Assembly (NCBI GenBank): GCA_964016885.1
Contig: OZ024748.1
Coordinates: forward strand, 57,598,001 to 57,662,000
Direction: 5' to 3'
Origin: Eledone cirrhosa
Lineage: Eukaryota
DNA length: 64,000 bases
The notes below the pieces were generated by a model that saw only the letters and a program-made list of their open reading frames with translations, was not told the DNA's origin and did not search any database. The position numbers and the translations under genes were made by a program. Every line of letters begins with the position of its first letter. Positions within the stretch are counted from its first letter, which is position 1. This document shows positions 1,568 to 53,819 of this stretch, piece after piece.

Positions 1568-1756
1568 GGAAAATGTTTATCCCCGACGGCAGAGCGCATG
1601 ACGGCTATTTCTGGACGAGTCCAGAAATAGCCGTCGAAAAGGCTTGAGCTCTGCCGTCGGGGTTAAACATTTTCCTATTAACCACTCTACTACCCTAAGT
1701 ATTGAGTACTCTGGTGTGTTATGGTCCATCTGGTTCCTTACCACACCTCCTTCGTT
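1568..1756 (+). mobile_element. Fold-back HHR element, family P (copy 1), in (TA)n
   Basis: Inverted arm 1568-1598 pairs with about 1645-1675; retains ATGA + 17-bp hairpin (1600-1635) + GAAA; tail ends CCTTCGTT(TA)n as in the other four copies. Confidence 0.85.
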
Positions 1757-2020
1757 TTATATATATATATATATATATATATATATATATATATATATAT
1801 ATATACGGTGGTTTACCAGTGGGTAAAATTGGTCAATCTGCAAATATGAGAAAAGCACTCGACGTTATGCAACTCATCTTCAATGTTGAATCATGTTGGT
1901 GGTGCGGTAACGGAGTAAATGTGCACTGAAATATGCATAGGGTTTACAATAACAAATTAAGGAAAACCAACATATTTAGCAGGGTGTCTGTCTGGATTCA
2001 TATATATATATATATATATA

Positions 2021-2585
2021 TAAATGAAAATAGAGAAATTAATGTAAGCAAAAAGCCTACAATAATTAGACATATAAGTGACTATAACATCAAGATGAAA
2101 CATTTTTAACGAAAGATATGGGATATGTAATAAAATCTTAATTCAATAAAATCAAGAAAAAATACTTAATATGGGAAAACTACAAATGCACTATATAGTC
2201 TTAAAAGACTTTTCAGTGGGGTTAGTCACGGTTGGGGTCGATCTTCAGTAGTGCTCAAACACGTTAACTAACAAAAACTGCTAAAATGCCGGAGGGGAAT
2301 TGACAATAGGCAAGCGAACATCGGGTAGAATTGAAATAAGAAAACACACGTGGACACAGGCTAGTGATGCCGGGATGAGACGAAAATCTGTTTACAAGAA
2401 ACACCAGTCAAAACATTCCGAAAAAAACTCAACAAATATATTGAGTTCAGCCTAAGCAATATTACCGCAGTTATTTTACAAAAACTGGGATTAGTCACAA
2501 ATATTAATAAGCACTCAAGGACAGCTCCGAGTATTAATATATAAATGAAAATAGAGAAATTAATGTAAGCAAAAATCCTACAATA
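2021..2585 (-). mobile_element. Terminally redundant 521-bp unit with a hammerhead-like motif (retrozyme-like or non-autonomous PLE)
   Basis: 44-bp direct repeats at 2021-2064 and 2542-2585 (1 mismatch); (TA)n on both sides; HHR-like motif at 2188-2254. Confidence 0.7.
2188..2254 (-). ncRNA. Degenerate type I hammerhead ribozyme
   Basis: GCACUA-CUGAAGA-(27 nt, poorly paired)-GAAA-AGUCuuuuaaGACU-AUA-UAGUGC; stem I is 6 bp, stem III is off by one nt. Confidence 0.55.
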
Positions 2586-3229
2586 TATATATATATATAT
2601 ATATATATATACATATATTAGAAAATAAGTTTTTTTTTCAATATGAAAAAAAAAAACGAGATGTCCTACACGGGTGAAAGTATAAGGAAAAAAGATGAAA
2701 TCGAAAATGCAACTGGAGTCTTTTTAAGAATATTTATTTGCATCTTTTACCGGTTTCGCAGTTCTTATGCTTTTCAAATGTAGAATTGAGATAGAGGGTT
2801 TGTGGTTTTTCATATATATATATATATAGAGAGAGAGCGGGCGTGATTCCGGAAACATATACACACACACATGCATTTATGTGTGTGTATACATATATAT
2901 ATACATATTTCTGAGGGTCACAGCGAAGAATTACCATGGACAATATTTAGTCGTTGAAAAGTAGAATTTTATTTGAAAAAAGGGTCTGAGAAAGCTTCAT
3001 GTAAATGACCATGTAAAAATATCGTTAATGGATTCTGATTGCGTCTTCTAGTAATGTATAATATAGAGTAGATGTTTCTTATTACATATATGATTTTTAA
3101 TGTTTGCTTTTAGCAAGAAAATATATAACACATAAATTACAAAAGAAAAAAAAAGAATCAGAAAATGCGAATATGCAATATGTTTTTTTATATAACGAAA
3201 TAGCGTATGATAAACACATTTCTGAATGG

Positions 3230-3449
3230 GCCTCATTATCACCATCACAGTCATCATCATCATCATCATCCTCATCATTATATCATCATCATCCTTTATA
3301 TTCTCATAACACACTCCCTCCTCTGTACCATCACCCTCAGCATCATCATTATTAACATCATCACCATCATACTCTACATCGTCATACGACTCCACACCCC
3401 CTCTTAGCCCTCTTACATAACACCATCACCATCATTATTATCATCATCA
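3230..3449. repeat. (CAT)n-rich degenerate trinucleotide repeat
   Basis: Directly visible; it produces the His/Asp/Met-rich spurious ORFs and resumes at about 3670-3820 after a SINE. Confidence 0.85.
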
Positions 3450-3633
3450 TTGGCAGTATCGGTAGAGGGTCGGACGCCAAGCTTTGACGCATAGAGTTAC
3501 GGCCCTTGCCATTCTAAGTTCAAATCCCGCCGAGGTTAACTTTGCCTTCTATTCTTACGGGGTCGATAAAATAAAGTACCAGTAATGTACTGGGTATTTG
3601 CTGGCCTCATGCCAAAAGTATAAACAATCATTA
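3450..3633 (+). mobile_element. tRNA-derived SINE, family A
   Basis: A-box-like TGGCAGTATCGGTAGAG, B-box GTTCAAATCCC, core and tail as in other copies. Confidence 0.9.
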
Positions 3634-50955: not shown

Positions 50956-50967
50956 AGAAGCCATATC

Positions 50968-51102
50968 TTTCTCTCCCTCTTTGTCTCTCTCCCTGTCACT
51001 CTCTTTCTCTCTCTCTCTCTCTCTCTTTTTCTCTCTTTCTCTCTTTCTCTCTCTCTCTCTCTCTCTCTCTCTCTCTCTCTCTCTCTCTCTCCCTCTCTCT
51101 CT
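50968..51102. repeat. (CT)n microsatellite
   Basis: Directly visible. Confidence 0.95.
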
Positions 51103-51125
51103 TATATATATATATATTTATATAT

Positions 51126-51666
51126 TTCGTTTCTGAATTTGTTTAGCAAGATTCTTTATCTGAAATCGTGTGTTGAAACCGATATTGTTATACTTTGGGA
51201 GGGTCATGTAGCCAATAAGAAACACACGCACCAGTTGCTTTCACTTCAATTTATTATATATTTATAAATTTATAAATTTCTGGTTGGTTGGTTGGTTCCA
51301 CAACCAGATAGTTGTTTATATATAGTCATAGTTCTTTCGTCACACACTCTGTGGCCTCTTCAGACACACGGATGTGGCGCATGCGCAGACTGAGCACACA
51401 ACATACACACAGAAAGAAAATGGCGTAGGACAGAACAAAGGAGAGGCACAGAAACAAAGAAAGGAATCCCCAGTCACTGAAGAGGTCACATAGTGTGTGA
51501 CGAAAGAACTATGACTATATATAAACAACTATCTGGTTGTGGAACCAATCAACCAACCAGCAATTTATAAATTTATGAATTTATAAATATATAATAAATT
51601 GAAGTGAAAGCAACTGGTGCGTGTGTTTCTTATTGGCAACATGACCCTCCAAAAGTATAACAATAT
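51126..51666 (-). mobile_element. Large fold-back HHR element, family T
   Basis: About 185-bp inverted arms at 51182-51363 and 51477-51666, each starting at CTGAAGA; 113-bp spacer; extra tail 51126-51181; TA repeats on both sides. Confidence 0.88.
51472..51516 (+). ncRNA. Minimal type I hammerhead ribozyme
   Basis: AGUCA-CUGAAGA-gGUCACAUaguGUGUGAC-GAA-AgaacU-A-UGACU; 1-bp stem III, CUA triplet. Confidence 0.75.
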
Positions 51667-53624
51667 ATATATATATATATATTTATATATATATATATAT
51701 ATTTATATATATTTATATATATATATTTATATATTTATATATATATATTTATATATTTATATATATTTATATATATATATTTATATATATATTTATATAT
51801 ATATTTATATATATATATTTATATATATATTTATATATATATATTTATATATATATATATATTTATATATATATTTATATTTATATATATATATATTTAT
51901 ATATATATTTATATTTATATATATTTATATTTATATATATATATATTTATATATATATATTTATATATATATATTTATATATATATATATTTATATATAT
52001 ATATTTATATATATATATTTATATATATATATTTATATATATATATTTATATATATATATATATTTATATATATATATTTATATATATATATTTATATAT
52101 ATATATTTATATATATATATATTTTTATATATATATATTTATATATATATATATATATATTTATATATTTATATATATTTATATATATATATTTATATAT
52201 TTATATATATATATTTATATATATATATATATATATTTATATAAATATATATATATATATTTATATATATTTATATATTTATATATATTTATATATATAT
52301 ATATTTATATATATTTATATATTTATATATATTTATATATATATATATTTATATATTTATATATATTTATATATATATATTTATATATATATTTATATAT
52401 ATATTTATATATATATATTTATATATATATTTATATATATATATATTTATATATATATATATTTATATATTTATATATATATATATTTATATATATATTT
52501 ATATATATATATATATATTTATATTTATATATATATATATATATATATTTATATATATATATATATTTATATATATATATATATATATATATATATATTT
52601 ATATATATATATATTTATATATATATATATATATATATTTATATATATATATATTTATATATATATATATTTATATATATATATATATATATATTTATAT
52701 ATATATATATTTATATATATATATATATATATATTTATATATATATATATATATATATTTATATATATATATTTATATATATTTATATATATATATATAT
52801 ATATATTTATATATATATTTATATATATTTATATATATATATTTATATATATATATTTATATATATATATATATATATATTTATATATATATATATATAT
52901 ATATTTATATATATATATATTTATATATATATATTTATATATATTTATATATATATATATATTTATATATATATTTATATATATTTATATATATATATTT
53001 ATATATATATATTTATATATATATATTTATATATATTTATATATATATTTATATATATTTATATATATTTATATATATATTTATATATATATTTATATAT
53101 ATTTATATATATATTTATATATATATTTATATATATATTTATATATATATTTATATATATTTATATATATATATATATATTTATATATATATTTATATAT
53201 ATATTTATATATATTTATATATATATATATATATTTATATATATATTTATATATATATTTATATATATATTTATATATATTTATATATATATATATATAT
53301 TTATATATATATTTATATATATATATATATATTTATATATATATTTATATATATATTTATATATATATTTATATATATATTTATATATATATTTATATAT
53401 ATATATATATATTTATATATATATTTATATATATATTTATATATATATTTATATATATATTTATATATATATTTATATATATATTTATATATATATTTAT
53501 ATATATATTTATATATATATTTATATATATATATATATATTTATATATATATTTATATATATATTTATATATATTATATATATATTTATATATATATTTA
53601 TATATATATATATATATATATATT
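51667..53624. repeat. About 2-kb (TA)n array with TTTA interruptions
   Basis: Directly visible; the 697-aa ORF is an artefact of it. Confidence 0.97.
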
Positions 53625-53819
53625 TAGGAACCAGTAAGACCCCGACAGCTGAGCTCAAGCCGTTTCGACGGCTAATTCTGGGTCCAGAATTAGCCGTCGA
53701 AACGGCTTGAGCTCAGCTGTCGGGGTCTTACTGGTTCCTATTACCCACTCTACTACCTCAAGTATTGAGTACTTTGGTGCGTTATGGTCCACCTGGTTCC
53801 CTACCACATTTCCTTCGTT
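53625..53819 (+). mobile_element. Fold-back HHR element, family P (copy 5), in (TA)n
   Basis: Perfect 57-bp arms at 53625-53681 and 53684-53740 with a 2-nt spacer; same tail as the other copies. Confidence 0.92.

Follow-up and report, generated by a model that had tools for sequence, protein, structure and literature searches.

Endonuclease-bearing Penelope-like elements (PLEs) are known to leave insertions in which an inverted, 5'-truncated copy of their pseudo-long terminal repeat (pLTR) is accompanied by a tail (PMC3846280; Craig et al. 2021, PMC8557442; all papers cited here are represented by parts of their text). The palindromes at the junctions have been interpreted as self-priming (PMC3846280), and the origin of the inverted repeats has been stated to be open (PMC8557442). 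In vitro, the protein of the anole element PAc Poseidon nicks and extends both strands, and two internal starts of the reverse transcriptase (RT) bound the tail (PMC11167929). A U3-A8 hammerhead core occurs in the schistosome PLEs named Cercyon (Cervera and de la Pena 2014, PMC4209133), and in L1 insertions an extra G marks capped 5' ends (PMC11702581). Here we analyze family P, of which five copies lie in a stretch of 64,000 nucleotides of the Eledone cirrhosa genome (assembly GCA_964016885.1, contig OZ024748.1, positions 57,598,001 to 57,662,000; hereafter the window). Judged by its sequence, family P consists of stubs, 110-200 bp long and joined head to head, that derive from a Penelope-like retrotransposon with (TA)n as its target. 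Our best reading, to which we give a probability of roughly 0.68, is that twin complementary DNAs (cDNAs) primed at (TA)n ran off the capped 5' end of the element RNA and were joined, giving fixed ends at +20 and +97 and a pile-up of junctions at about -41 (+1 is the base right after the hammerhead GUC, and -1 is the C of GUC).

Family P and its parent element

The five copies are 81-98% alike over their common parts, and each lies within or adjoins (TA)n, which also fills the space between copies 4 and 3 (Table 1). As the initial annotation had it, all five share a tail of 77-78 bp (+21 to +97) and an outer arm end at about +19/+20, and the sense strand carries the 3' half of a hammerhead ribozyme, with GAAA, stem III and the GUC triplet. 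The arms turn at -40/-41 in copy 1, -35/-41 in copy 2, -38/-40 in copy 5, +6/+1 in copy 4 and within stem III in copy 3. The last two agree with the annotation, which had placed copy 4 at the cleavage site (its direct arm starts at +1) and copy 3 in stem III, where the junction is ambiguous over 19 nt because that stem is self-complementary. Copy 1, which belongs to an older subfamily, had been described as having an arm of about 31 bp that turns within a CUGAUGA core and retains ATGA. This description did not hold: as far as -40 the left arm mirrors the right arm in reverse complement, the ATGA is made by a 4-nt filler plus the resumed arm, and the turn resembles those of copies 2 and 5. Neither arm accounts for the single G that lies between them, and no native upstream variant compared does so either. 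Copies 2 and 5 had been said to turn in a stem II hairpin; their turning points do fall within the true stem II, but the hairpin seen there is the palindrome itself, and the 5' strand of the true stem II, known from uninverted copies, differs from it in sequence.

Upstream, the uninverted relatives continue through the complete hammerhead fold, some 1.2 kb that is untranslated and a frame for a GIY-YIG endonuclease. In a tandem array the unit has a period of 3,542-3,543 bp, the partial and tandem units being pLTRs. [quoted passage not shown] With the RT and GIY-YIG frame, the tandem pLTR units and the inverted truncated copy with a one-end tail all present, the element appears to be an endonuclease-bearing PLE, and it matches most traits described for the Hydra clade. 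The stubs themselves are ordinary insertion debris of this known class.

In the 3.0-Gb genome, to which all genome-wide counts refer, 24,373 places match a 30-nt tail word exactly, and 327 places continue past +97 into the element body; body-less stubs thus stand to ORF-linked repeats at about 75:1, as counted with two different patterns. A word at -32 to -11 has 54,319 matches and one at -88 to -67 has 4,922, these patterns covering different subfamilies. Both +20 and +97 serve as insertion ends, and next to each stands a UAU matching the (TA)n target. A TA run follows the tail in 94 of the 96 parsed copies described below, and no separate target duplication is discernible within (TA)n.

Longer copies show further arrangements. 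L032, L033, L037 and L035 have inverted arms of 0.3-1.8 kb, which likewise end at +20 and have their turn within the ORF or the untranslated region. In the upstream parts of L034, L035 and L038, other divergent GIY-YIG/RT frames of the same general type adjoin family P copies, and L034 has LTR (long terminal repeat)-retrotransposon-like frames as well. In L136 (about 1374-2028) the unit from -44 to +213 is directly repeated, with the identical join occurring twice; copying round a small circular RNA, several successive jumps or a later duplication could each have produced it.

Uninverted copies are predicted to hold a type I hammerhead fold with three helices, GAAA and an NUH triplet. The fold was predicted for native copies L024, L029, L071, L171 and L185, and another fold was taken by 3 of 10 folded representatives and by the L193 variant. 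Among 53 native motifs, the core at -84 to -78 reads UUGAGAA in 32, CUGAGAA in 11, UUGAUAA in 9 and GUGAGAA in one. Thus, 41 of the 53 have the U3-A8 covariant core UUGANAA and 11 have an unpaired C3 opposite A8, and the CUGAUGA core that the initial annotation had predicted for uninverted copies is absent (CUGANGA, 0/53). This tally is biased in that 30 searched loci came from a pattern demanding a YTGAKAA core; CUGANGA was also absent from 12 uninverted copies among 30 loci picked regardless of core. Rfam gave no hammerhead match for a native copy at E values up to 10, and none among the 150 matches listed, of 314, for the window, those listed being microsatellite or hairpin microRNA look-alikes. 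The subfamily with C3 opposite A8 (for example L010, L011, L052, L153 and L159) has been amplified, yet it is predicted to cleave poorly.

Junction positions, the extra G and the number of primers

The 96 copies that we parsed, with natural uninverted copies as the reference, were drawn from the first 98 tail matches listed, in the first 26.5 Mb of contig C1; two of the 98 were dropped as identical keys, and the last two of the 100 listed places were not included. A second sample held 30 of 535 matches of the older subfamily. The first 30 loci, which had been chosen for a full match from -40, were excluded from the junction histogram. An adjacent inverted arm is present in 75 of the 96 copies. 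The outer ends are fixed, with the inverted arm at +20 in 68/75 and the tail at +97 in 82/96. Inner ends fall within the 15-nt interval from -47 to -33 in 55/96 direct and 57/75 inverted arms, which is about two thirds of them, and in 16/30 direct and 13/20 inverted arms of the older subfamily. Stem III takes 10/96 direct and 5/75 inverted inner ends, enrichment at the cut site is not significant (3/96 and 4/75), and 7/96 direct arms run beyond -48. The strong non-uniformity that the initial annotation had anticipated is therefore present (p ~1e-31 against a uniform spread over 146 nt), but the junctions do not map one by one onto ribozyme elements. Genome-wide, the fold-back junction pattern at the hot spot occurs at 15,482 places, against 29 for a reversed control.

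The joins comprise 37 with microhomology, 14 blunt and 24 with filler, a few of the microhomology lengths being inflated by tolerant alignment. The 37 palindromes selected without bias have 33 distinct junction strings. In essentially all of 109 parsed palindromes both arms belong to one subfamily; arms from two different subfamilies were looked for in these 109 and not found. Because the junction strings nearly all differ and the arms share subfamily marks, the palindromes appear to be independent events with one source each. Three copies (L098, L285 and L323) have A-rich fillers after an inverted arm that ends at about -41 to -44, which suggests that A's were added at the template end; these would mimic the native T run.

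At the hot spot, an extra base recurs. Genome-wide, the base before A-41 in the youngest subfamily is T (native) at 3,059 places, G at 898, C at 684 and A at 108. By hand count, 20 of the first 30 places with G before A-41 are unexplained by the partner arm, and most places with C are explained. In loci that had not been selected for the base, the unexplained base is G in 14/19 cases before A-41 versus 12/67 at other positions. Where arms are joined straight to (TA)n, G precedes A-41 in 9 of 56 places and G-40 in one, again by hand count. Within the first 100 G places listed, 8 pairs of neighboring places on opposite strands show the extra G on both arms, and this was verified in sequence for 4 junctions. 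Non-inverted copies reach the same site: in 4 of 30 read-through loci (L135, L136, L138 and L140), a stretch of element body is followed by a direct jump landing at -38 to -44. The hot spot sits in the distal 3' strand of the true stem II, where the apical hairpin is weak (-1.9 kcal/mol) and varies among subfamilies, and stronger helices 3' of it are passed. Because of the direct jumps, the non-native G and this weak, variable hairpin, we read the hot spot as a physical RNA end; it is likely to be the capped 5' end of the element RNA rather than a ribozyme hairpin. A turn at the RNA 5' end was one of two options in the initial annotation, and it is the one that these data favor. Near -41/-45 stand words that we take, from a loose and unscored match to consensus motifs, to be initiator- and TATA-like. 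Jumps or ends at +1/-1 occur in 3 of the 30 read-through loci (L151, L158 and L160), and the few ends at +1 may derive from ribozyme-cut RNA.

Several findings bear on the number of primers. Solo copies of the form (TA)n[-41..+20](TA)n, lacking the tail, exist (L265, L268 and L288), so that +20 is a start site by itself. The inverted arm extends 10 nt or more beyond the 5' limit of the direct arm in 11 of 75 copies, and in 3 there is no overlap between the two. For this count, 3 stem III copies with ambiguous joins were excluded beforehand, and of the 14 remaining, 3 were set aside (two ambiguous, one with both arms from +97). Such arms disfavor self-copying, because a cDNA folded on itself can reproduce only sequence that it already contains. 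In L1 twin priming, the second target strand primes an inverted cDNA. Together with the G on both arms and the two-strand priming of the anole element, the solo copies and the longer or disjoint inverted arms make two primers the better reading of these sequences; snap-back may be the last joining step in some copies.

On this two-primer, run-off reading, transcription would start at A-41 inside stem II, perhaps with a second start near -45, and the first 140 nt of the RNA would include both priming sites. Since the hammerhead core lies at -84 to -78, such an RNA is predicted to lack the ribozyme at its 5' copy. By analogy with the anole element in vitro, the endonuclease would nick both (TA)n strands, one 3'-OH priming at +97 and the other at +20. 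After 60-140 nt each cDNA would reach the RNA start and stop, often with a C added opposite the cap, and the two cDNA 3' ends would then be connected by a blunt join, by microhomology of 1-5 nt, by filler or by a template jump. In a minority of copies, the microhomology would come from local self-complementary words, including stem III. For longer and full-length copies, priming on the downstream repeat of uncut read-through RNA would be required.

Alternative routes to a head-to-head stub

A number of observations count against a start at -41 with run-off of two cDNAs. The putative start is read from genomic copies, and the samples come from the first part of contig C1. Of about 17 long ORF-bearing loci (among 30), none has its beginning near -41; these loci start at -83 to -781 or at +27, or are tandem, and the -41 type of end appears only in short chimeras (L135, L136, L140 and L162). 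Of 30 places with the native T before A-41, 20 read through A-41, which amounts to about 40% of young-subfamily arms that include it, and 10 end at -42 to -46, which requires a second start or added A's. The excess of G has to be read with the limit that only G and A can be scored before A-41, because T and C are native there; these two alone stand at 14 to 4 in the same unselected loci. Arms of one subfamily suit one source RNA but suit snap-back equally, and a frequent 28-nt junction class is shaped like a hairpin with a 6-nt loop, as snap-back would yield.

The initial annotation had proposed just such a snap-back, in which one cDNA folds at ribozyme hairpins and copies itself into the inverted arm. 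Besides the last two points, the palindromic junctions themselves, the turns of copy 3 and a few others in stem III, and the location of the hot spot within the true stem II fit it, and it is close to the published self-priming idea (Arkhipova et al. 2013, PMC3846280). As a general route, however, it is improbable. A true snap-back at stem II would retain the 5' strand of that stem, which is absent from the junctions, and the fixed +20 end, the solo copies, the inverted arms that exceed the direct arm or have no overlap with it, the G on both arms and the direct jumps to the hot spot are left unexplained. Twin priming might instead be combined with an RT that stalls at about -41 on a longer RNA, at the stem II fold or a bound protein, and adds non-templated C. 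Many arms do read through -41, the long ORF-bearing copies do start elsewhere and the stops spread over about 10 nt, all of which a stall would accommodate. We nevertheless consider it unlikely, given that the stop stays in place while the weak local hairpin varies among subfamilies, that the G enrichment is tied to one position and that the upstream edge is sharp.

Processing of the RNA, by splicing at the acceptor-like AG at -41/-40 or by a nuclease cut, with C added by terminal transferase, could also place an end here. A pyrimidine run and AG lie directly at the hot spot, and Penelope repeats hold introns near the hammerhead (PMC4209133), but A-41 and G-40 are kept in the ends, though splicing would remove them, and the fillers show no common leader; we give this explanation only a slim chance. 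Very little credence is due to a family of the MITE (miniature inverted-repeat transposable element) or SINE (short interspersed element) type amplified from ready-made fold-back masters. The very high copy number, short size and one common outer end would suit such a family, which is largely refuted by the near-absence of repeated junction strings, the asymmetric ends, the continuum up to kilobase inverted arms and the lack of a discernible target duplication in (TA)n. The initial annotation was thus right to see a retroelement with a hammerhead fold rather than a MITE with fixed terminal inverted repeats.

Returning to twin cDNAs that run off a capped RNA end, the large natural sample gives countable marks in favor of two primers and a capped end: an additional G at a single position, its presence on both arms, solo copies that end at +20, and arms that do not overlap. 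More tentatively, and at somewhat less than even odds, we propose that this lineage starts a capped transcript in the middle of its hammerhead, so that the ribozyme would be present only at the downstream repeat, and that the tens of thousands of stubs in the genome record, base by base, a two-primer reaction with two fixed priming sites, a run-off at the cap in which the G is copied on both strands, and a join made head to head. If this is true, a mid-hammerhead start with two primers would explain the inverted pLTR and tail of PLEs generally, and the transcription starts of such families would be readable from genome sequence alone.

Other repeats of the window and comparison with known systems

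Microsatellites dominate the repeats found in the window. Two further inverted pairs were noted (Table 1). The members of one are 81% alike, copy 3 lies in (TA)n directly after the second member, and each has a short frame that we take to resemble the C-terminal end of a long interspersed element RT. The members of the other are 93% alike and end at a long (TA)n; their end sequence recurs beside (TA)n in L006 and L212 and possibly marks another fold-back family. A second repeat family of about 190-250 bp, 72-95% alike and with some copies in tandem, has a tRNA-like head and is presumably SINE-like.

Table 1. Family P copies and other repeats in the window
Feature	Position	Strand	Remarks
Copy 1, inverted arm	1568..1616	-	about +19 to -40; 4 nt in place of 12 nt inside the arm
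Copy 1, single G between arms	1617	+	directly 5' of A-41; likely cap-derived
Copy 1, direct arm	1618..1755	+	A-41 to +97; hammerhead 3' half; predicted cut after 1658; tail 1679-1755
Copy 2, inverted arm	29601..29655	-	+20 to -35
Copy 2, direct arm	29656..29793	+	A-41 to +97; predicted cut after 29696
Copy 3, whole	41908..42045	-	+97 at 41908; inverted arm ends +20 at 42045; turn within stem III
Copy 4, whole	42075..42185	-	direct arm from +97 at 42075 to +1 at 42171; inverted arm from +6 to +20 at 42172-42185
Copy 5, inverted arm	53625..53681	-	+19 to -38; youngest subfamily
Copy 5, direct arm	53682..53818	+	-40 to +97
Inverted pair, 81% alike	41060-41334, 41579-41856		
Inverted pair, 93% alike	51185-51363, 51477-51663		
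Second repeat family, copies	1133-1240, 3430-3633, 6020-6191, 7328-7437, 15692-16188, 21468-21662		
Second repeat family, further copies	22643-22803, 28425-28623, 32119-32592, 44640-44825, 58179-58386		

Much of what family P displays is already published for PLEs, namely the inverted copy, the tail, the (TA)n bias and the junction palindromes (PMC3846280; PMC8557442). We found no cap mark or twin priming for PLEs in the open-access literature, older subscription papers on the Drosophila Penelope promoter lying outside this search, and the parts of PMC13282606 and of bioRxiv 10.64898/2026.07.22.740005 available to us hold nothing on a -41 junction. Like endonuclease-bearing PLEs, the family has partial tandems, an inverted truncated 5' copy, a tail on one arm, palindromic junctions, microsatellite targets and a hammerhead in the repeat. 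Its tail is 77 nt long, versus 30-40 in published PLEs, and its junction hot spot with an extra G is not described in the accessible text of PMC3846280 or PMC8557442. The parent element shares with the Hydra clade (PMC8557442) the DKT motif, a CxCX5C linker, CxxC and CxH around the endonuclease end, the absence of GxKF/Y, the C-terminal GIY-YIG and (TA)n targets. At the place that matches the RWK of Hydra elements it carries RWR (LRWR). It differs in its unit of 3.54 kb versus generally less than 3 kb (a general, not a strict, trait), and in its hammerhead, which is a U3-A8 core variant with a long stem II. As in Schistosoma Cercyon (PMC4209133), the motif is of type I, with U3-A8 covariation, a G10.1-C11.1 pair and nearby opposite-strand pairs. 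Unlike Cercyon, it has a stem III of 5-6 bp and a stem II of about 55 nt, from which a monomer fold is predicted, and 11 of 53 motifs have C3 opposite A8.

The likeness to PAc Poseidon extends to the AT-rich targets and to the start sites, which lie just downstream of the hammerhead at the 5' end and bound the tail. In family P both start sites lie beside a target-pairing UAU, whereas no homology is reported for PAc Poseidon in the part of PMC11167929 available, which deals with neither the inverted join nor the 5' end of the RNA. On the two-primer reading, family P shares with L1 twin priming an inverted cDNA from the second strand and microhomology or filler at the join. A further likeness is the extra G at complete 5' ends (PMC11702581). 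In L1, however, priming by the second strand occurs at variable sites and the two cDNAs mostly represent separate stretches, whereas in family P both sites are fixed and the cDNAs would usually represent one and the same stretch of 60 nt, so that a palindrome results.

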